Part shown: in pieces, positions 1 to 36,200 of the stretch
Numbering within the stretch: the first letter of the stretch is position 1
How the letters are laid out: the number at the start of each line of letters is the position of its first letter
Source: a virus
Taxonomy: Duplodnaviria > Heunggongvirae > Uroviricota > Caudoviricetes
Reading direction: 5' to 3' (one strand)
Virus record (IMG/VR): IMGVR_UViG_2874956758_000005
Length of the DNA: 40,694 nt
Notes under the pieces: generated by a model
What the model was told of the DNA's origin: nothing
The model's input: the letters and a program-made list of their open reading frames with translations, nothing else
The model's database searches: none
Position numbers and translations under genes: made by a program

Positions 1-582
1 TTACTCTGCAGGTGAAGTCGGCCACTCAATATCAGGTGCAGTTGATGTATCAACACGGTTCAGCAACACCCGATACTTCTTCCAGGCTTCCAGCAACAAG
101 GTTTCTTCCTCCGTTGCGATCTCCAGATCCACAGCATCCTGAAGCGGCGCTATATGCTCACTGGCTACCTGCATCAGGCTGTTTTTTGTTTCTTCCGCCT
201 CCCGGATCCGGAACAGTTTTTCTGCTTCCGTATCCTTCACCCAGACTGTACCGTTCCACTTCTGAAACTCCCCTTCCGGGGATAACCAGGTGACATTTTC
301 CGGTAATGAGCCGAGTTCAGAAATAAATAACGCGTCGCCGGAAGCCACGTCATAGACCGTTTTACCCCGATGGTCTTCAACGAGATGCCACGATGCCTCA
401 TCACTGTTGAAAACAGCCACAAAGCCAGCCGGAATATCTGGCGGTGCAATATCGGTACTGTTTGCTGGCAGACCTGTATGAGGCGGAATATATGCGTCAC
501 CTTCACCAATAAATTCATTAGTTCCGGCCAGCAGATTATAAATTGTTATGGTCCGTGGTTGTTCACTCATTCTGAATGCCAT
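1..582 (-). CDS. tfa: tail fibre assembly protein (Tfa)
   Basis: 193-aa ORF immediately downstream of side tail fibre gene; stop codon complement at 1-3; typical lambdoid Tfa size and position. Confidence 0.8.
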
Positions 583-3477: not shown

Positions 3478-4077
3478 TCAGAACTTATAACCGACACCCA
3501 CGATGAAATCGTCAGTGCGCCAGTCGCCACTGCCGGAGCCTTCATAAGCAATATCAATGGCCACGGATTCGGTCGGGTTAAACTGCACGCCAGCTCCCCA
3601 CGCCAGAGACGTGTTGCTGTGGCGACCGTCATCACTTCCGGTCAGCACGTCGTGCGTTTTCCCCTTGTTGTCAGTTACGCGGAGATAATCCCCGGAAAAA
3701 GTCGACACACGGCTGTAAGCCACGCCCGCCATCGCATACGCACTGAACCATTCATTCACGCGCACAGACGGCCCCGCCATCACGCTGAACCAGCGGTTAC
3801 GCACGGAATCTTCATGCCAGCGGGTATCGCTGTAACGGGTAAGCTGGCGATTCTTGTCTCCTGCATAGCTGAATGACGTCACCATCCCCAGCGTATCCGT
3901 AAACTCATAACGGTATTTCACGTTAATCCCGTTCAGATCATCGCTGCCGGGAACGTTGGTCGAGGCATGAAGATACCCCGCGCTCAGCGTGGACTGATGT
4001 TCAGACGCCCATGCAGGCGCACCGGATACGGCCAGACAAATGGCTGCGGACAAAATTGCTGCACAAACTTTACGCAT
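3478..4077 (-). CDS. lom: Lom/Ail-family outer membrane protein
   Basis: 199-aa ORF with signal peptide and C-terminal aromatic ...GVGYKF beta-barrel terminus; sits between J and stf as in lambda. Confidence 0.9.
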
Positions 4078-4146
4078 AATTACCTCTCGCTTTTCTGCAA
4101 TAAAAAAGGCACCATTTCTGGTGCCCTTATATGGGTTATAACAATT

Positions 4147-7100
4147 TCAACGAATACTGATGCCGGAAGCCGCTTTTTTGGTCACAATCACCGTACAGTC
4201 GGTGATATTGCCTGCCCCCTGATTGCCTTTCTGGAAAATCTTAAACTCCAGAGTGACGCTACCACCACCACTAGGCATATCAATAACTGCACTGTAACTA
4301 CCGGGAATGGCCCCTTTAGTTTCTCTGGATGCGATTAATACGCCGTTTTTGCGAACTTCAAAACCATAACCCGTGTATCGCGTGCCTCCTAGGTTATTTC
4401 CGCTCCCCGGATCGTCATACGCTATACCGTTAAAAATAATGGGCGGAATAATAATCTGGCGGTCAAAGTTATGATCATCGCTGATGGTGACTGTAACCGT
4501 ACCGTTTGGTGTTTCCGTGTTACCCCACGTACCGACTTTTTTCGGGAAGGCTTTTGATACAGCTTTAACGAAATCCCCTCTGACCTGGGTCGCCTCCAGC
4601 ATGCCCTTAATCGTACAGTTTTCATTTACCGTGACATTGTTGAGCGTCCCGGCGTTCGCATTCACACTGCCACTGATATCCGCATTTTTAGCGGTCAGCT
4701 TTCCGTCTGATGTCAGGGAAAATACCGGAGGACTGCCACCACTGGTAATGGTGGGGGCCGTCAGGCGCTTCAGGAACACGTCGTTCATGAATATCTGGTT
4801 GCCCTGCGCCACAAACATCGGCGTTTCATTCCCGTTTGCCGGGTCAATAAACGCGATACGGTTAGCGGCAACCAGAAACTGGCTCAGCTTGCCTTCCTCT
4901 GTGTCCTCCATGCTGAGGCCAATACCCGCGACATAATGTTTGCCGTCTTTGGTCTGCTCAATTTTGACGCCCCACATGGCATTCCATTTATCGTTAGCGT
5001 CCTTCCACTCTTTCGAAAACTCATCCAGTCTGCTGGCGTTATCCTCCGTCAGATCAACTTTTTCCAGCAGCTCTTTACCGAGATGGGATTCGGTTATCTT
5101 GCCTTTGAAAAAATCCAGGTAACCTTCCGCATCATCGCTCGCCCGACCGACGGCCTCCACGAATGCCGATTTGCCAACGGTGTTCACACTGCGGATATAA
5201 AAGTAATAATCATGGCCCGGTTTGATATTGATACTGGCGGCTATCCAGTACAGCCCCGTGCCAAGGTAGCGGGCTGTGGTTTCAACCTGCCTGATATCGG
5301 TAATCCGCGTTTCCGAGAACCAGAACTCAAACTGTACCGTCGGATCATAAACCGCAAGATGCGGCGTGGCAGTTATCTGAAAATAGCCCGGCGTCAGCTC
5401 AATCCGCGACGGCGCTGCCGGGGCGGCAATCCGGAACGATACCGACGCCGGATCGCCCTGCTGTCCCCGGGCATTTACCGCCCGGACCGTCAGCGTGTAA
5501 CGCCCCAGCGCCAGCTGCCTGAAGCGGTAAGTGGTTTCCGTCGTCCGGGCCGTGCTGACCAGCCGCTCACTGCCGTCATCGGCGGCCACGGTCAGGCGAA
5601 GCATAAAGCTCACACCCTTCACTACCTTCGGCGTGTCCCAGCGCGCCAGCACCTGATATTCCCCGCTGTCTGCGGTGACTTCGGCGGTCAGGTGCTGCAC
5701 CGCTGGCGGCGTGACACCATTCACCGTGCCGCTCTGGTCGCCGTCAAAGTACGCCCCGTTATCCACGATGGCCTCTTTTTCCGGTACATGCTGCACGGCG
5801 GTGATGGCATACGTGCCGTCGTCGTTCTCACGGATACTCACGCAGCGGAACAGGCGCTGGCGCAGCGTCGGCAGCTTCAGCCCCCACACGCTGTATTCAG
5901 CAACACCGTCAGGAACACGGCTCACTTTCACCTTCACGCCGTCGGTGACGGACTGAACCTCCACGCTGATCGGATTGCCACTTCCGTCAACCAGGCTTAT
6001 CAGCGTGGTACCGGAGGATGGCAGCGTGATTTCACGGTCGAGCGTCAGCGTCCGGGTCTGGCTGTTTACCGCCAGCACGCGCCCGCCGATGCTGATACCG
6101 GCATAGTCATCATCACAGATTTCAATGACATCGCCCGGCACATGGCGAAGCCCTTCTGCGCCCACGCTGAAGTCCACGGTCTGCGTTTCCAGCAGTTCTG
6201 TTTTAATCAGCCACAGCCCGGCGCGATGTGCCTGCCCCCGGCTGGTACAGCCAAAGGCATCCATTTTCGTGACGTTACGACCGTAACGGGCAATGGCCTG
6301 CGTATCCTCCACAAGCTCTGTCGCCGTCTCCCAGCCGTTATTCGGGTCAATCCAGTTCACCTCAACGGCATTATGGCGGTCCTTCAGGGCGCTGAAGCTG
6401 TAGCGGAACGGCGCACCATCATCCGGCATCACCACATTACTGCGGTTATAGGTCCACACCTTATCTGATGGCCGGTCCTGCACGAACGTCAGCGTCTGCC
6501 CGTTCCATACCGGCATACAGCGCATCGCCGAGCAGAAATCACTGAGCACATCCCACGCCTTGCGCTGTGTGGTCAGGTAAGCGTTACAGATGATGCGCGG
6601 CTCCGTGCCGCCAAAGCCATCCGGCACCGACTGGTCGCAGTACTGGCCGATGACATACAGCGCCCATTTATCCACATCTGCCGCACCAAGACGTTTCCCC
6701 ATGCCGTAGCGCGGGTGGGTCAGCATATCCCACAGACACCAGGCCATGTTGTTGCTGTATGCCGGTTTTAACGTTCCGTCCCAGATACCGCTGTATTGCC
6801 GCGTCTGCGGGTTATAATTCGACGGCACCTGCAGAATGCGCCCGCGAAGATGATAATTACGGCTCACCTGCTGGCTGCCGAACTGCTCCGAATCCACCTG
6901 CACGCCGACCAGTGCCGTGTTCGGGTAGCACTGTTTCACATCGATGATTTCGGTGTATGACGACCAGAGCGTTTTGTTCTGCAGCTGGTCTGTGGTGCTG
7001 TCCGGCGTCATTCTGCGCATCCGGATATTAAACGGGCGCGGCGGCAGGTTATCCACCACCACCGAGGCCAGATACTGCGAGGTGGTTTTGCCCTTAATGG

Positions 7101-23644: not shown

Positions 23645-23720
<76 letters not shown>

Positions 23721-23723
23721 TAT

Positions 23724-23798
<75 letters not shown>

Positions 23799-23800
23799 CT

Positions 23801-23877
23801 GGACCGCCACCGGGGACTCGAACCTCGCACACTCAACTTAAAGGGTTGACGCTCTTTCCTGATGAGCTAGTGGCGGT
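23801..23877 (-). tRNA. tRNA-like gene, anticodon loop CCUUUAA (UUU, Lys-type?), atypical C33
   Basis: Perfect acceptor CCGCCAC/GTGGCGG, D arm GCTC...GAGC, anticodon stem TCAAC/GTTGA, T-loop TTCGAGT, CCA end; T-stem A-C mismatch. Confidence 0.5.
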
Positions 23878-23878
23878 T

Positions 23879-23954
23879 GGTGGCCCTTGCTGGATTTGAA
23901 CCAGCGACCTGGCGATTATGAGTCGCTCGCTCTCACCACTGAGCTAAAGGGCCG
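23879..23954 (-). tRNA. tRNA-Ile2/Met-type (anticodon CAU), ileZ-like
   Basis: 76-nt cloverleaf GGCCCTT...AAGGGCC acceptor, anticodon loop CTCATAA, T-loop TTCAAAT, CCA end. Confidence 0.7.
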
Positions 23955-24135: not shown

Positions 24136-24164
24136 AATATATGCCTTTCAATCTACTTTTGCAA
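24136..24164 (-). promoter_or_regulatory. candidate late promoter (PR'-like)
   Basis: Minus strand TTGCAA -17 bp- TATATT overlapping the end of the Q ORF, ~50-70 nt upstream of the terminator. Confidence 0.35.
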
Positions 24165-24836
24165 CACTTTGCTTTGAAAATGCCGTCTTTTTTTTGAACG
24201 TGTTCTCATTACAAACAATAAAGCCTCACTATCCAGTCGGTGAAAAATGTGTTTCATTGCAACCCAGTGACGAGTAAATGTTTTGGACCAGTTTTTAGTT
24301 GTCACTCCCGCCAGTAATGCCAGCTCCTGGTATTCATAACCTTCCCCACCAAAAAGTTCTGCTTTTACTGCCTGCGCCGCCAGCCAGATTAATTTTTTCA
24401 GGCGTTCCTGCGTTTTCCCTGCAATTTTTCTGGTACCGGATTGAGCATTAAATTCATTCCACGCCCACTGTGTTATCGCGATCTGATATTCCCAACAAAT
24501 ACTCCCGCTGTAACACCACAACAACCAGGCTTTATGATGTTCTTCAAGAGACAGAACAGCCCGCCGCCACGATGATGTCGAAAACCCAACCGGACTGACC
24601 AGAGGAATTGACGTCCCCTTCGCCAGCGATTGCTTTCCCGGGATTGGTGGATTATCCCGCGTTATCATTTTTCCAGTCACTTCATCGCGGTACCGGATTT
24701 TTTTACGCCTGTAACGCCCTGTATCGAACATGGCATTCTCTTGCCAGGCTTCAAGCTGACCTTTTGTTGCCCCACTCAAATCAGCGGTGGCGATAATGAG
24801 CTGCTCACGCACAAACTGTAAATACTGGTTATTCAT
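24153..24836 (-). CDS. putative late antiterminator Q
   Basis: 227-aa ORF immediately upstream of late promoter/terminator, tRNAs and lysis genes; ATG overlaps rusA stop (ATGA). Assignment mainly positional. Confidence 0.5.
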   Translation of the reverse strand: MNNQYLQFVREQLIIATADLSGATKGQLEAWQENAMFDTGRYRRKKIRYRDEVTGKMITRDNPPIPGKQSLAKGTSIPLVSPVGFSTSSWRRAVLSLEEHHKAWLLWCYSGSICWEYQIAITQWAWNEFNAQSGTRKIAGKTQERLKKLIWLAAQAVKAELFGGEGYEYQELALLAGVTTKNWSKTFTRHWVAMKHIFHRLDSEALLFVMRTRSKKRRHFQSKVLQK

Positions 24837-25198
24837 GCGCACCCCAGTTCTGTGATTTTTATCCCCAGCCGCCCACCAGGAACGAGCTGACCGCGCACAA
24901 TATTGATTTCATCAAACTGCTCGTCGTCTATAAGTAGTCCAGCATGCGTCAGCGCATCCAGCGGTGCCTTCAGGATATTGTCCAGGTCACGACGGCGCTT
25001 ATCCGGTGGCTCTGCAATAATCTTTATCGCCAGCCTTCCGGACAGGTTTAATTTCAGTCGCTGCTGGCGAACAATTAGCGCCACATCACGGCGATAACGC
25101 TTTCCGGCTTCCGAGATGAAATACGTATTGCCATGACGTCGCCAGTAGGTATTCACCGTCGGCGGGTAAGGCAAAACAAATTCTATGCGTTCAGTCAT
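24833..25198 (-). CDS. rusA: Holliday junction resolvase RusA
   Basis: 121-aa ORF with ...PPDKRRRDLDNILKAPLDALTHAGLLIDDEQ... RusA catalytic Asp cluster. Confidence 0.85.
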   Translation of the reverse strand: MTERIEFVLPYPPTVNTYWRRHGNTYFISEAGKRYRRDVALIVRQQRLKLNLSGRLAIKIIAEPPDKRRRDLDNILKAPLDALTHAGLLIDDEQFDEINIVRGQLVPGGRLGIKITELGCA

Positions 25199-26257
25199 TC
25201 ATGCTTTCCACTTCAGGACACCCGAATTTCTCGCGTGCATTAAAAAACGAATCAGCAACAACAGCTGGCTGCCGTGTTTTTCTTCAAAATCTTTTACCCC
25301 GGCGTGCAGTTCGTTATGACATTTACGGCACAGCGGAATAACAAACAAATCATCAGCCTTTGTTCCCATCCCTCCCAGTCCATGACCAATGATGTGATGC
25401 GGATCATCTGCCTGATTGCCACACGTCATGCATTTCTGCGTTTTTACCCAGCGCGTGTATACGGGCATCTCTTCCCGTTGTGGTTTCTGGCGCTGGAGAT
25501 ACTGAGCCGGAGAATCCGGATCAACGGCAATGCTGACCACCGTCTTTTCCTGTGGTGGATTCTGTTGCTGGTGGGCGTGAGGCAACGGCGCAATATTTTT
25601 TGTGCGCTGCTTCAGTATGCTGGTGGCGGTCTGCGCTCCCGGTACGATATCGCTTTCGCGGTATACTGAGCGGATTTTTTCTACCGGTAATCCCAGCGAA
25701 CGACGTAATACTGCCTCCGGTAGCGCGTCCGCCACCTGATTGCAGAGCGCCCACCAGGATAATTCAGCCAGAGATAATTCACGCTCCTGCGTACCGCTTA
25801 TTGCGTGACCGATGACGTCAATCATCCATGCTGACAGGTTTTGATGAGCAAGTTGCCCGAGTGATTCGGATGTCTGGTCACGCAACTGGTTGTCGCAGTG
25901 CCAGCACAACACCATTGCGCCGGTACCATAACGGTGAATGACGGTTTCGCTGTGATGATAATCGCCGTGTGGCCACTGGCAGGATTTAACGTGGCGTAAC
26001 AGCCAGTCAGACAGTGCACCAGCACCGCCAGCAGCACGAATCACACGCTCATCGCTGAAAAATGGCAGTAATGATTTGTCCTCCGCCAGCGGCTGGCGAA
26101 CGGCAGGAACGACCCCGGACGGCAGATTACGCATGCTTTTCGGTTCCGGCTCCACCAGTACCCGGGTATTGTGGAATACCGGCATGGATTCACGGCCTGG
26201 CTTAAGGACCACCAGCCCGAGTTCCGGAACCAGAACAGGTCGAAGTAATACCCGCAC
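25199..26257 (-). CDS. DUF968-family prophage protein (YdfU-like) with C-terminal HNH-like Cys/His motif
   Basis: 352-aa ORF; C-terminal ...CMTCGNQADDPHHIIGHG...CRKCHNELH; typical nin-region position upstream of rusA/Q. Confidence 0.7.
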   Translation of the reverse strand: MRVLLRPVLVPELGLVVLKPGRESMPVFHNTRVLVEPEPKSMRNLPSGVVPAVRQPLAEDKSLLPFFSDERVIRAAGGAGALSDWLLRHVKSCQWPHGDYHHSETVIHRYGTGAMVLCWHCDNQLRDQTSESLGQLAHQNLSAWMIDVIGHAISGTQERELSLAELSWWALCNQVADALPEAVLRRSLGLPVEKIRSVYRESDIVPGAQTATSILKQRTKNIAPLPHAHQQQNPPQEKTVVSIAVDPDSPAQYLQRQKPQREEMPVYTRWVKTQKCMTCGNQADDPHHIIGHGLGGMGTKADDLFVIPLCRKCHNELHAGVKDFEEKHGSQLLLLIRFLMHARNSGVLKWKA

Positions 26258-26258
26258 A

Positions 26259-26537
26259 TTACCTCCAGATGCGTTGCTGGAATGTGCGGGACGGACGCGG
26301 TGGGCGTTCAGAGTAAGGAAGCCTGACGGAGATTATCCAGTGACGATAATCGAGGCTGAGGGCTTTCTTAATCTCGTATCCGTGTCTGCGGTAGCACTGA
26401 ATTAGCCACTCGGCCTGTTCTTCAGTGCATGGGTCATGCTGGAACCAGTCAGATTTGAAAGTGCGGGAACGCCGCCCGTGCCTGCTGGCAAAGACGGCAG
26501 AATCATCAGAATTGTGTAATTTGGTATCGTGCGCCAT
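26259..26537 (-). CDS. hypothetical small protein upstream of DUF968
   Basis: 92-aa ORF from ATG 26537 (MAHDTKLHNSDDS...); co-oriented and abutting DUF968 gene. Confidence 0.4.
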   Translation of the reverse strand: MAHDTKLHNSDDSAVFASRHGRRSRTFKSDWFQHDPCTEEQAEWLIQCYRRHGYEIKKALSLDYRHWIISVRLPYSERPPRPSRTFQQRIWR

Positions 26538-26672
26538 CGGTTGTCTCTGCTGGCGCAGCAGGTGCCAGTTGTTCAGGCTGGCGTGCGGCAATATTGTCTC
26601 TGATTTCTGTTGTCGTCAACAGGCAGCGTGCTATCATCGAATAGTGTTCTATCCTACTCCTTGAGGTTTACC

Positions 26673-26930
26673 ATGCGTACAACCCAACAATTCAGCATTA
26701 CATTAACTAACGAGATGGCTGACATGGTGCGCGCCCGTGTGGCTTCCGGTGCCTATGCTTCAGAAAGCGAGGTCATTCGTGAAGGGCTTCGCGCACTGAA
26801 TGAGCGCGATAAAGCAATCGAAGCGTGGTTAACGCATTCAGCCGCCCCCTCTCTTGATTCTATCCGCGAAAATCCAAACAACGGACGCTCCATTTCACAG
26901 GTTCGCGCCGCGATTCGATCCGGAAAGTAA
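26673..26930 (+). CDS. ParD/CopG-type ribbon-helix-helix antitoxin
   Basis: 85-aa ORF MRTTQQFSITLTNEMADMVRARVASGAYASESEVIREGLRAL...; GAGG RBS; 5 bp upstream of toxin gene. Confidence 0.7.
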   Translation: MRTTQQFSITLTNEMADMVRARVASGAYASESEVIREGLRALNERDKAIEAWLTHSAAPSLDSIRENPNNGRSISQVRAAIRSGK

Positions 26931-26935
26931 TCTGC

Positions 26936-27247
26936 ATGACATATGAAGTCATCATTACTCCTGAGGCCGAACAACAAATAATCAACCTGCACAGATATAT
27001 AACTGAGAAAGCAGGGAACGTCATTGCTGACAATTATGCCAATGCACTTCTTGATTATCTTGATGGGTTTTCTACATTCCCGCATCGGGGCAATAAACGC
27101 GATGATATTCGCCAGGGGATGCGGGTAACTCATTTCCGCCACAGAACGATTATTGCTTTTGCCGTTGATGACAATAAAGTTTTTATCGCAGGCGTATACC
27201 ACGGTGGGCAAATCTATGAAACCGATTTTTTATCCAGTGCACCGTAA
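26936..27247 (+). CDS. ParE/RelE-family toxin
   Basis: 103-aa ORF directly following antitoxin; family-typical layout (N-terminal helices, C-terminal beta region ...FAVDDNKVFIAGVYHGGQ). Confidence 0.7.
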   Translation: MTYEVIITPEAEQQIINLHRYITEKAGNVIADNYANALLDYLDGFSTFPHRGNKRDDIRQGMRVTHFRHRTIIAFAVDDNKVFIAGVYHGGQIYETDFLSSAP

Positions 27248-27287
27248 AACCCCCATCCTTCAGGGCGTGGCGGATATCAAACTTTGG

Positions 27288-28370
27288 TCATTTTCTCTGG
27301 CTGATCTTTACCGGATAACCATCCCGAAGATCAATTAAGTGCTCCGGTTCAGAAGCAAACCATGCATAAGATCCCCACGCCAATTCTGGTATTGCCTTTT
27401 TAAAAGGCAGAGCACTTCTGTCCATAAATGCCGTAAGGAATGCAAGATTTTTCTCGCTGAACCCAGCGTCAATAGCCAAATGAGTGAGAGTAACTTTTCG
27501 TTCCCTGTTTATAGGCCCATCTGTCGCAACTACTTCAGTGAAAACTACAAGCATGTCCGAACCCGTTCGGTCCTCTCCCAAATCAATCAAAATAATATCT
27601 GGAAGTGCTTTTGAGGCATCAATATTCAGCCCCAATGCTTTTGCCAATACATCATCCTGAGCAACAACTTTATTCCCGGATTCAGACAACCAGAGCACAG
27701 TTGGATTCTTAAGAAAATTAGGAGCAAAAACTTCGATGACGGCCTTAGCTATTGTACTTGACGGGCCCGGAGCTAAAGTTCTCTTCTCTCCATTTGGGAA
27801 AGTGACGACTACGGCATCAGCAGCAATCACTGCCCCTGATTTCAATAAACGCAACCTGGCAAGAGCGGCTTTGTTCAAATGATTTTCTTGCCAGGAACTT
27901 ATTGCACTCAGCAGCGAATCTCCTTCAAGCCCGGCATCAAAGAGTGCTGCAAAAGAGCGATTCAAACTGTAACGAGGACGAGAGGATGTGGTGGGTATAC
28001 CTTTACGCTCAACAATTGCATTGCAAGGTATTAGGCCATTTTTTATAGTTTCATCACGTATTGGCTCACGCGTATTTTCCGCATACCATGCATCAGCAGG
28101 CCTTATCTTTTGTTTAGAGAAAGTCATCTTTACCCAGCTTTCTCTGGACGCATCATCAGTAAGAGCAGCCTGCGAATCTCCCATACTTACAACCTGGCTG
28201 GGCCTTATCCATCGCCCCAGCCCCTCAACCGCACCAGCATAAAACATGACAAAAATTGTTTTTGCAGCTATTTCCCGAATTAAATATCCACGATTCTCAG
28301 TCCCTTCAGGGAAAATTAATTGTAATCTTTCCCGGATAACATTCAATGGGGGAACAACAGGCAGATTCAT
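27288..28370 (-). CDS. type II restriction endonuclease, BsuBI/PstI family (putative)
   Basis: 360-aa ORF translationally coupled (ATGA overlap) to upstream N6-adenine methyltransferase; AT-richer than flanking phage genes. Confidence 0.6.
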   Translation of the reverse strand: MNLPVVPPLNVIRERLQLIFPEGTENRGYLIREIAAKTIFVMFYAGAVEGLGRWIRPSQVVSMGDSQAALTDDASRESWVKMTFSKQKIRPADAWYAENTREPIRDETIKNGLIPCNAIVERKGIPTTSSRPRYSLNRSFAALFDAGLEGDSLLSAISSWQENHLNKAALARLRLLKSGAVIAADAVVVTFPNGEKRTLAPGPSSTIAKAVIEVFAPNFLKNPTVLWLSESGNKVVAQDDVLAKALGLNIDASKALPDIILIDLGEDRTGSDMLVVFTEVVATDGPINRERKVTLTHLAIDAGFSEKNLAFLTAFMDRSALPFKKAIPELAWGSYAWFASEPEHLIDLRDGYPVKISQRK

Positions 28371-30199
28371 GCAATCATCACTCCATAGAAACCAGCGATA
28401 GTTCTCTCAATAATCCGTCTGTGGACGCCAGCATCAATTAACGATTGAATCTCCATCACCTGCTCCAGAGAAGGCAACGGGATTGAATTCAATTCATAGG
28501 CCGAAACAGCAACACTTCCGCTTATACACCTGAACGCCCGATCGACAACATGCGAATTAAGTAGCATATCAATAACATCAGGGCGAACCGCAGAGAACAA
28601 TCCGTTTGAATATACAATATTAATATGGTTTTCAACTACTACGCCACCAGTTTCATCTATAAATCCCTGAGGTAAAATTGCCGCTAAAATCCTTCTGTCC
28701 TGTTCCTTCGATGTTGTCCGCTGAACAAGCACACATTCAGATTTTGTCACAAGGAAACCCTGTTGTGGGGTTATATCGATATAGGGAACATGATTTTTTC
28801 TGTCTGCACTAAAACGAAAACCAGCTGAAGTTATTGATTCCGCCCAGACTAATGGGTAGCTATTTTTTCCTTTCGTCGTACGCAACTGCGACTTAAATCG
28901 ATTCCAGACTAACTGACCTGTAGAGACTGAGTATCCCAGATCAGCTAAACGCGTAGACATCTGTTTTAATACATTAAGAAAACAGGCATCATCTTTAACG
29001 CGTGGCAAAAGCCACGTTGCTCCACCTTTTTCTATATCAACATTACCTATTTTCTCAATTTTTGCTTTGTTCAACCCCTTAGGGACAAGTGAGGATACCT
29101 GGGCCCGAACTTTATGTTCTCCCGCCTTGAATGCTGTCAACATTGTTTCCTGGAGAACATCGTCAAAGACCCCATCCCTGTCAGCGACGAAATCAAGGGC
29201 ATACGGAGTAGTTTTTTCGGTCAAAAGGGTTCGCAGCGCGGTGAAATACTGCCCACCAAGAAAAGAAGTTGGCGTAAGAAATGCAATAACTCCTGTTTTC
29301 TCTTTAACCATGCGAACAGCTAAGTCGGTGAACAATCCATATAGATTTGCATGACCAAATAACGAACGAGAATATTTTTCTCTCGTTTTAATATCGAGAG
29401 TGACACGTCCGTAAGGCGGATTCCCTACCACAAGATCATAACCAGAAAATTTATCTTGCTGAAGCGCATCAGCAACAATAATTGTATCTTCAGGCAATCT
29501 ACGTTTTACCTTTACACATAGTGGCATTAGTACAGATTCGAGCAATACCAAACTCATCCAAGCCGCAAATGGATCGATTTCTATCCCCTTTAAACGACGA
29601 CTGATTCTCCTCAACATCCATTCAGGGGAAGACCCCTTGTCTTTTTTTAACATTCGAATGGCTACTGGTGCCAAAAATGCACCGCCACCACACGCAGGAT
29701 CAATAACCGATGCATGAGAAAAATCAACACCAGACTTTTCAGCCAGGTCCAAGAGACGCGCTACCAAAGGTGGGGGGGTATAGTAAGCCCCCAATTCCGA
29801 ACGGTAAGCGGATGGCAGCATTACCGTATAAATTGACCCAATCAGATATCCAGCGTCCTCCGCCGGAAATTGAGCAATAAGCTCACCTGTTCGTTCAGCG
29901 AGCTCGCGTGCATCACATGGAATGTCTTCTATGTAAACAGTGTGCGGTACTGCCCTCATTTTAATGCTGCTTTTTTGCTTTTTTGCAAGGGTATCCCAAT
30001 ATGCAGCTACGATGCTGAAGCAGTATGAGCGGGCATGCATCAACCTTGACTGCCCGGTTTTGTAATTGCCCGCATAACCTTTGGCCATGGCTTTACAAGT
30101 TTGATATCTTTCCAGATTAGAAAACTCATTATCTGTAAAAAAATCAAAATGTTGCACATTCATAATGTAAAATCCTAATGTATCAAACATGCGGGCCAT
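28367..30199 (-). CDS. N6-adenine DNA methyltransferase (Eco57I/PstI-type, gamma-class)
   Basis: 610-aa ORF with AdoMet motif I VIDPACGGGAFL followed by catalytic motif IV VVGNPPYGR; start could be ATG 30199 or 30163. Confidence 0.8.
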   Translation of the reverse strand: MARMFDTLGFYIMNVQHFDFFTDNEFSNLERYQTCKAMAKGYAGNYKTGQSRLMHARSYCFSIVAAYWDTLAKKQKSSIKMRAVPHTVYIEDIPCDARELAERTGELIAQFPAEDAGYLIGSIYTVMLPSAYRSELGAYYTPPPLVARLLDLAEKSGVDFSHASVIDPACGGGAFLAPVAIRMLKKDKGSSPEWMLRRISRRLKGIEIDPFAAWMSLVLLESVLMPLCVKVKRRLPEDTIIVADALQQDKFSGYDLVVGNPPYGRVTLDIKTREKYSRSLFGHANLYGLFTDLAVRMVKEKTGVIAFLTPTSFLGGQYFTALRTLLTEKTTPYALDFVADRDGVFDDVLQETMLTAFKAGEHKVRAQVSSLVPKGLNKAKIEKIGNVDIEKGGATWLLPRVKDDACFLNVLKQMSTRLADLGYSVSTGQLVWNRFKSQLRTTKGKNSYPLVWAESITSAGFRFSADRKNHVPYIDITPQQGFLVTKSECVLVQRTTSKEQDRRILAAILPQGFIDETGGVVVENHINIVYSNGLFSAVRPDVIDMLLNSHVVDRAFRCISGSVAVSAYELNSIPLPSLEQVMEIQSLIDAGVHRRIIERTIAGFYGVMIA

Positions 30200-30413
30200 A
30201 ACATCTCATGGTGGCGCATAGCAAACTGGCCCGAAGAATATCACGCACCAAGTCGATCTCATAACCCGTTATGACAATAAATCTTTGTAGCTGAACTCAC
30301 TTGGTGATTTGTCAATCATTCCTGGCCTCCAGTTCGTCCTGAATCTCTTTATCGAGTTCACCGTATTTGTTAGTCCTCATCACTCACGACTTGACTTCCA
30401 GAAATAACCTTGA

Positions 30414-30770
30414 TTATTCGGGGCTATATTTTGTCACCCTGCGTATCCGCGCTTTCGCATTACGCTCAATCTGGATTAGCTTTTCTATATTTTTTCGCCT
30501 TTCCCGCTCCTCCTGGCGCAAGAGCCTTACATCATCTGCCAGTCTGGTTTCTCTTTTCGCCACAGAGAGCATCCAGTCAAACGGCTCCACAACCGCACCG
30601 CAGATTTTACAGCGGACCTGACGCTCTTTTTCGTCAACCCGGACAGAAGCGTGATGGCAATATGGTCTTTCCGATGGCTCATAAAGAAAATTAACCTGAT
30701 TACGAGGGTTATCCTCTTTTACCGGAAATAAAACGATATTGCTTAACTCATCTTCTGGTTTTATTTCCAT
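30414..30770 (-). CDS. hypothetical protein with Cys/His cluster
   Basis: Start chosen at ATG 30770 (AAGGAG 6 nt upstream; MEIKPEDELSN...); contains CHH...CKIC; an in-frame ATG at 30827 is an alternative. Confidence 0.4.
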   Translation of the reverse strand: MEIKPEDELSNIVLFPVKEDNPRNQVNFLYEPSERPYCHHASVRVDEKERQVRCKICGAVVEPFDWMLSVAKRETRLADDVRLLRQEERERRKNIEKLIQIERNAKARIRRVTKYSPE

Positions 30771-30827
30771 GCTCCTCTCCTTTGATGCGAATGCCAGCGG
30801 TAATTGAAGCCTGATAGCTAATTTCAT

Positions 30828-35807: not shown

Positions 35808-36155
35808 TCACCCTCCTGAGGGTTGGTAATTAAGGAGTTCTCCACGGGTGAGGTGGAGTGCGTGCGCCGGACACGGGTGAGCATCCGGCACTGACAGTTT
35901 ACTGAAAGGATATGTCCCTGAAAAGTCAGGGCATAACGCGAAAGCGCACGGCGAGGCTGTTAGTTCATAAATGGTCTGTCGTTAAATTTTCGTCGACCGT
36001 GCGCTTCCGGTTGTGGCAATCCGCGAAATGGCGCGGCGGTAAGTATGGCGGGGTTATTCCTTCCCCGTTGAGGACACCGGGTTGTCAGGTTGACCATACG
36101 CTTAAGTGACAACCCCGCTGCAACGCCCTCTGTTATCAATTTTCTGGTGACGTTT

Positions 36156-36200
36156 GGCGGTATCAGTTTTACTCCGTGACTGCTCTGCCGCCCTTTTTAA
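36156..36200 (+). terminator. candidate intrinsic terminator
   Basis: GGCGG...CCGCC imperfect hairpin followed by CTTTTTAAA. Confidence 0.4.

Follow-up and report, generated by a model that had tools for sequence, protein, structure and literature searches.

A probable ParD/ParE addiction module carried as an inverted cargo cassette in the nin region of a Qin-like prophage

The DNA considered here is a stretch of 40,694 nucleotides from a Caudoviricetes virus (IMG/VR record IMGVR_UViG_2874956758_000005), called the window below. It probably carries an intact type II ParD/ParE operon that serves as an addiction module and sits, as an autonomous and inverted cargo cassette, in the nin-region slot of a Qin-like prophage. 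This reading is built on gene identity, fold class, gene pairing, purifying selection, cassette borders and the recurrence of the slot. As a discovery the parDE pair matters little, being a textbook type II module and an ordinary member of a well-known family that annotation pipelines have already named. In the near-identical locus of E. coli FDAARGOS_943, RefSeq lists the antitoxin as 'type II toxin-antitoxin system ParD family antitoxin' (WP_001260977.1, to which the ParD of the window is identical) and the toxin as 'RelE/ParE family toxin' (WP_197939990.1), and both families are present in PHROGs. The slot upstream of DUF968-RusA-Q, on the other hand, is a clean example of exchange between unrelated toxin modules. 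If it is true that ParE poisons gyrase and triggers the SOS response, the module could also bear on Stx prophage stability and Shiga toxin induction. No experiments on this parDE pair or its lineage, or on toxin-antitoxin modules of the nin region, were found in the searchable literature.

An earlier note on this DNA had described an RHH-antitoxin/ParE-toxin pair on the plus strand of an otherwise minus-strand operon, and this arrangement is borne out: both open reading frames are present, and every neighbouring gene from Q through Cro/YdaT (~33900) lies on the minus strand. The main features are as follows.

26673-26930, plus strand: parD, from ATG to stop, an RHH antitoxin of 85 aa
26936-27247, plus strand: parE, from ATG to stop, a 103-aa toxin allele
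24153-24842, minus strand: Q
24833-25198, minus strand: RusA
25199-26257, minus strand: DUF968
26259-26537, minus strand: small conserved backbone gene (phrog_1212), the left border of the cargo slot
30414-30827, minus strand: conserved backbone ORF (phrog_1621, E 1.8e-54)
To the right of the restriction-modification pair, minus strand: DUF977, a DnaC-like protein, a replisome organiser, YdaT and Cro
23648-23953, minus strand: four tRNA genes upstream of the lysis genes (Rfam)
36142-36193, plus strand: DicF sRNA (Rfam, 76.7 bits)
41-239, minus strand: IS009 RNA family (Rfam, 222 bits)

The prophage is considered Qin-like because DicF is present and because homologues of ydfA, ydfB and ydfC are found in the FDAARGOS_943 locus; its repressor is annotated as a LexA-family protein. 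The placement of the pair 'just upstream of DUF968-RusA-Q' holds to within one gene, as the backbone gene at 26259-26537 intervenes. That gene was considered as a Rem homologue and rejected, since it gives no alignment to Rem. On the far side, the ORF at 30414-30827 marks the point to the right of the restriction-modification (R-M) island at which homology to other prophages resumes; it also has a weak zinc-ribbon match (PF08271, 21.1 bits, below the cut-off of 29). The start of parD is preceded by GAGG 6 nt upstream of the ATG at 26673. An alternative TTG start at 26610 was discarded, as the longer form did not improve the profile match, and with the ATG start the phrog_6494 profile is aligned over positions 1-85 of 85. 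An antisense ORF of 152 aa at 26753-27211 has neither a Pfam match nor a RefSeq annotation and is therefore taken to be a shadow ORF.

In profile searches, both proteins score above the curated cut-offs of their families. ParD reaches 32.1 bits against PF03693 (ParD_antitoxin; cut-off 21) and 53.8 bits against TIGR02606 (cut-off 46.2), with both matches covering N-terminal residues 6-51, the same residues that align to Caulobacter ParD1 in the ParD-ParE complex 3kxe. It falls in phrog_6494 (E 1.7e-56), which PHROGs describes as 'antitoxin from a toxin-antitoxin system'. ParE reaches 41.1 bits against PF05016 (ParE_toxin; cut-off 23), matching profile positions 1-89 of 89, and falls in phrog_5232 (E 1.7e-41), described as 'toxin'. 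PF05016 alone cannot tell ParE from RelE, and the structure of the toxin was therefore predicted with AF2 from a 20-sequence alignment (pLDDT 82, pTM 0.73). The predicted fold is made up of one strand, a long α-hairpin and three further strands (E4-7, H9-26, H28-46, E61-67, E71-78 and E81-89). When the model was compared with the PDB by Foldseek, ranks 1 to 23 were all ParE chains (TM 0.63-0.76), among them Mesorhizobium ParE3, PfiT (9w3a), P. aeruginosa ParE, PrpT, M. tuberculosis ParE1 and ParE2, Vibrio ParE2, O157 ParE2 and Caulobacter ParE1. The RNase toxins RelE, YoeB and YafQ came lower in the ranking (TM 0.42-0.50), and because they are outranked by ParE chains, the model places the toxin in the ParE branch of the RelE/ParE superfamily. 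Its sequence identity to any solved ParE is 14-22%. A RelBE identity was ruled out, as RelE-type structures rank under all ParE structures and the antitoxin matches ParD and no RelB model. A three-component PaaR-PaaA-ParE system was likewise ruled out, as the antitoxin contains an RHH domain and the cassette has no third plus-strand gene.

The two genes are separated by 5 nt on the same strand, a spacing that, together with a promoter-like site upstream, would fit a single operon.

26607-26637, plus strand: candidate promoter and inverted repeat, from a consensus scan and direct sequence reading

The consensus scan gives a sigma-70-like site, TTGTCG-16 nt-TATCAT with an upstream TG, at 26610-26637. 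A perfect inverted repeat, CTGTTG-N4-CAACAG, lies at 26607-26622 and encloses the -35 hexamer. By a rough estimate, a 6-bp repeat with a 4-nt spacer is not significant by itself, since chance alone would yield about 0.2 of them over this length of DNA; the repeat is retained as a candidate ParD operator because it is conserved in diverged loci, the promoter stretch being shared by five diverged parDE loci, Salmonella among them. Both genes are under purifying selection, with Nei-Gojobori dN/dS values of 0.06 for parD (against the Salmonella allele) and 0.09-0.14 for parE. Pairing is also conserved over long distances. Among 17 loci with relatives of the toxin (39-82% identity, one genome per species), taken from Salmonella, Yersinia, Pantoea, Scandinavium, Paraburkholderia, Polynucleobacter, Dyella, Desulfovibrio and others, 16 have a ParD homologue directly upstream of ParE on the same strand. 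Profiles, fold and this conserved pairing together back the RHH-antitoxin/ParE-toxin identity that had been suggested, and pairing, purifying selection and operon geometry indicate a functional type II module. The downstream end of the operon is different from that of the common allele. A scan of the window found no terminator downstream of parE, whereas the common parDE allele has a terminator-like hairpin with a T-run after the toxin gene. In the common loci (L003 7637-7850 and L002 4894-5100), the toxin gene is followed by ~200 nt that are common to different prophages and hold this hairpin, GATCCCGGC...GTCGGGATCTTTTTT. As the window lacks this stretch, transcription of parE may enter the downstream endonuclease gene antisense.

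The operon and its promoter region travel as one unit, the borders of which can be drawn from breaks in homology.

~26588-27233, plus strand: mobile parDE cassette (promoter region, parD and parE)

Homology to hokD-type prophages runs without a break from RusA/DUF968 to 26587, where it stops, and homology to the parDE loci of E. coli RM10466, phage ArgO145 and Salmonella extends from 26590 to 27233 (to 27270 in Salmonella). Of 5426 complete E. coli genomes, 365 carry cassette DNA, in every case on the chromosome; it also occurs in phage records, with some Stx phages carrying it (e.g., Stx2a phage ArgO145). It lies in the nin slot of RM10466 and 2014C-3051, in an int-proximal region of ArgO145 and in a Salmonella prophage. 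The location in ArgO145, close to int and an antirepressor, indicates that the cassette is not bound to the nin slot.

The earlier note had proposed that this is a recurrent cargo site, the one that carries relBE and hokD in Qin, and the comparison of loci upholds this. K-12 Qin is 82% identical to window positions 25305-26554 and then continues with rem-hokD-relE-relB, and its YdfU is 80% identical to the DUF968 protein of the window; relBE has been reported as integrated into hokD in Qin (PMC6379469). The DNA of the backbone gene at 26259-26537 is found at 6123 places in 3128 of 5426 genomes, and is joined to hokD in 3311 genomes and to parDE in 328. In all three parDE-less prophages sampled (ST131 strain 5392, O157:H7 F6667 and JJ1886), hokD fills the slot. 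Put as shares of complete E. coli genomes, the occupants are hok/sok in ~61% and parDE in ~6%, with relBE plus hokD in K-12 Qin; the slot of the window additionally holds a restriction-modification pair. Eight slot loci were inspected by annotation (three of hokD type, four of parDE type and one of relBE type). Toxin modules are thus swapped at a homologous place in related prophages, but the orientation is not shared: parDE is inverted in 5/5 contexts examined, whereas hokD and relBE in the slot are co-oriented with the Q operon. In Salmonella enterica CP191473.1 (L018 2883-5312), a lambdoid nin region contains parDE with a 103-aa toxin, ORF6N, Hok/Gef and Rem in a row, from which it follows that type I and type II toxin modules can coexist in the slot.

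The 3' end of parE departs from that of the common allele. The common toxin allele encodes 99 aa (WP_000220600.1) and the allele of the window 103 aa. Over the 633-nt cassette there are 20 nucleotide differences from the common allele, and because 15 of these cluster within 27171-27229, the 3' end of the gene is judged to be recombinant; its last 25 codons form a mosaic, and the original stop has been replaced.

27231-27280, no strand assigned: ~50-nt IS609-like remnant (IS200/IS605 family) that resembles both IS609 ends

Homology to the common allele breaks off immediately 3' of the TTAT that overlaps the usual stop of parE, so that TTA TAA becomes TTA TCC AGT GCA CCG TAA and four residues, SSAP, are added. 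With the IS609 copy at ydcL-ydcO of E. coli BE104 as reference, the remnant is 92.7% identical to the tnpA-side end over 41 nt and 92% identical to the insQ-side end over 25 nt. The end-like sequence of the BE104 copy likewise starts directly after TTTTTAT. A Salmonella parE has an identical junction; there, 50 nt match the tnpA-side end at 98% identity, and the protein ends in SDAP. These shared junctions suggest an insertion targeted 3' of TTAT. As the remnant supplies both the codons and the new stop, the SSAP residues can be regarded as a side effect of an IS that long ago inserted at the stop codon; the tail is modelled at pLDDT below 50. It was also considered whether the adjoining R-M island is the cargo of an IS609-like transposon, and this was ruled out. 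Both end-like matches lie within 27227-27280, and no second IS609 end was found at the far side of the island (~30200-30420). The position of the two ends marks the remnant as an internally deleted mini-element and not as a bracket of the R-M genes.

The R-M pair begins just beyond this remnant.

27288-28370, minus strand: type II endonuclease of the BsuBI/PstI family (PF06616, PF17728; PADLOC REase_II, E 2.8e-128)
28367-30199, minus strand: cognate N6-adenine DNA methyltransferase (PF07669, PF02384; PADLOC MTase_II, E 6.7e-300)

The endonuclease gene is convergent with parE and its end lies 8 nt past the IS remnant; it is a neighbouring cargo gene, outside the toxin-antitoxin module. The island spans ~3.1 kb, from 27281 to ~30398, and backbone homology returns at 30399. 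Just 2 of the 5426 complete E. coli genomes contain its DNA, and in both it adjoins the 103-aa toxin allele. In the assembly collection, by contrast, the exact endonuclease protein is very common, being found in 4192 blocks. Nine of the 10 places listed (loci L006-L015) have the R-M genes next to ydfI, ydfZ, ydfH, ydfG and dcp in IS1-rich chromosomes of 4.8-5.0 Mb, which are probably Shigella. Two of these nine were aligned, and in both an IS1 lies within parE at ~27134, with parD and the whole late region to the left deleted. The toxin-antitoxin module is thus dispensable in the IS1-rich lineage, as IS1 has removed parD and most of parE.

Several characterized systems resemble the module of the window. 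Canonical ParDE pairs, such as those of RK2, Caulobacter (ParD1-ParE1, 3KXE), Mesorhizobium (ParD3-ParE3, 5CEG/6X0A) and Vibrio (ParD2-ParE2, 7R5A), have the same order of an RHH ParD followed by ParE, and their structures give the best fold match for the toxin. The window copy differs in residing in a lambdoid prophage and not on a plasmid or superintegron, and its toxin bears a four-residue IS-derived tail. The homologous slot, which lies upstream of the DUF968 (YdfU)-Q block, is filled by relBE-hokD in K-12 Qin and by hokD in most lambdoid prophages. These genes run in the direction of the Q operon and belong to other toxin families, RelE being a ribosome-dependent RNase and Hok a membrane peptide whose antitoxin is an RNA. 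The PaaR2-PaaA2-ParE2 system of CP-933P in E. coli O157:H7 (PMC8630535; 5CW7) likewise places a ParE-family toxin in a lambdoid prophage. Its paaA2-parE2 pair has been shown to be addictive, and no ParE2 activity, assessed through the SOS response, was detected at steady state (PMC8630535). The CP-933P system lies in the immunity region and is made up of three components, among them a CI-like regulator and an antitoxin, PaaA2, that has no DNA-binding domain, whereas the module here has two genes, an RHH ParD antitoxin and a nin-region site. O157 ParE2 matches the window toxin in fold (TM 0.68-0.76), with no sequence match at E below 1. Other prophage-borne toxins of the ParE/RelE superfamily are PfiT/PfiA of Pf4 and ParESO/CopASO of CP4So, both of which have an experimental effect on prophage maintenance or phage production (PMC7264888, PMC13048266, PMC8706911); ParESO-CopASO maintains the excised CP4So prophage (PMC8706911). 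Their hosts and phage types are different ones, Pf4 being a filamentous phage and CP4So a P4-like element, and the ParESO antitoxin is CopA-like, unlike the RHH ParD of the window.

From these comparisons, the most likely role for the pair would be that of an addictive module in which ParE poisons gyrase. The gyrase target, the lability of the antitoxin, autoregulation and the stabilising effect are all what knowledge of the family would predict. In the lysogen, parDE would be transcribed from its own promoter. ParD, with an N-terminal RHH domain and a C-terminal toxin-binding tail, would neutralise ParE and would most likely act as repressor of the operon at the inverted repeat that covers the -35 hexamer. 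Upon loss of the DNA or a stop in expression, labile ParD would decay, and free ParE would poison DNA gyrase; the cell would suffer double-strand breaks, induce the SOS response and stop growing or die. Addiction would be the net result, with the module stabilising itself and the surrounding prophage segment. The addiction step is proposed from family knowledge and from the related prophage systems of CP-933P and CP4So. Points against this explanation are the mosaic 3' end with its four-residue extension, the lack of a terminator after parE in the window, the steady-state result for ParE2 of CP-933P (PMC8630535) and the abundance of IS1-deleted relatives, from which it is clear that the module can be lost.

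The same parE end could be read as a sign that the toxin is attenuated or inactive. The SSAP tail and the recombinant C-terminal segment may weaken ParE, which would leave the operon as a decaying relic or as a source of antitoxin and repressor with an anti-addiction role. The mosaic of 25 codons with its replaced stop fits such a reading, as do frameshifted or truncated ParE variants in the databases (P0011, P0012, P0026-P0030) and the destruction of the pair by IS1 in many related chromosomes. Attenuation is nonetheless quite improbable. The ParE frame of the window is intact, with all 29 invariant and 19 nearly invariant family positions kept; the 103-aa form ending in SDAP is also maintained in Salmonella; and some ParE toxins have stayed toxic despite large C-terminal fusions (PMC6813445). 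A role in abortive infection or defence against superinfection is unlikely too, although it has the neighbourhood in its favour. An incoming phage that halts host transcription or degrades ParD would free ParE to kill the cell first, and parDE might act with the adjacent R-M genes as a two-layer defence island. The pair does adjoin a type II R-M system recognised by PADLOC, in a slot that collects toxin modules, and orphan ParD genes under purifying selection in Stx phages could be counter-defence. Against this, no PADLOC model matches ParD or ParE, with only the R-M genes matched, and the R-M linkage is rare (2 of 365 genomes with parDE DNA) and appears to stem from one late insertion. No report was found of phage defence by this ParDE lineage.

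The orientation of the cassette raises another explanation, in which the module is a device for lytic commitment. Upon induction, the pR operon would be transcribed antisense to parDE and silence it, ParD would decay, and damage by ParE would reinforce SOS and repressor cleavage. The inversion kept in every context examined, set against the co-oriented hokD and relBE, is in line with this, as is the LexA-family annotation of the repressor. The argument is one from orientation, and inversion is the usual route by which cargo genes are expressed independently in a lysogen. A lytic-commitment role is very improbable. It is also conceivable, but very doubtful, that the inverted parDE is a weapon in conflicts between phages, with ParE freed by superinfection or antisense shut-off and with the orphan ParD genes of Stx1 and Stx2a phages as counter-measures. 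If this were true, an orphan ParD could neutralise the ParE of a resident prophage or repress its operon.

The orphan genes themselves encode ParD without ParE and were seen at 4072-4329 of locus L004 (Stx1a phage Stx1_2409) and at 3598-3855 of locus L022 (E. coli 2013C-4282). Their DNA is ~87% identical to parD of the window. In the protein, the N-terminal DNA-binding half is identical and the C-terminal, toxin-binding half has diverged, with dN/dS of 0.13-0.20. Their role may be to counter a toxin or an addiction module. A small lipoprotein-like ORF and an orphan HigA-like antitoxin come after each of them, and orphan ParD is present in ~45 Stx-phage records and ~37 E. coli genomes.
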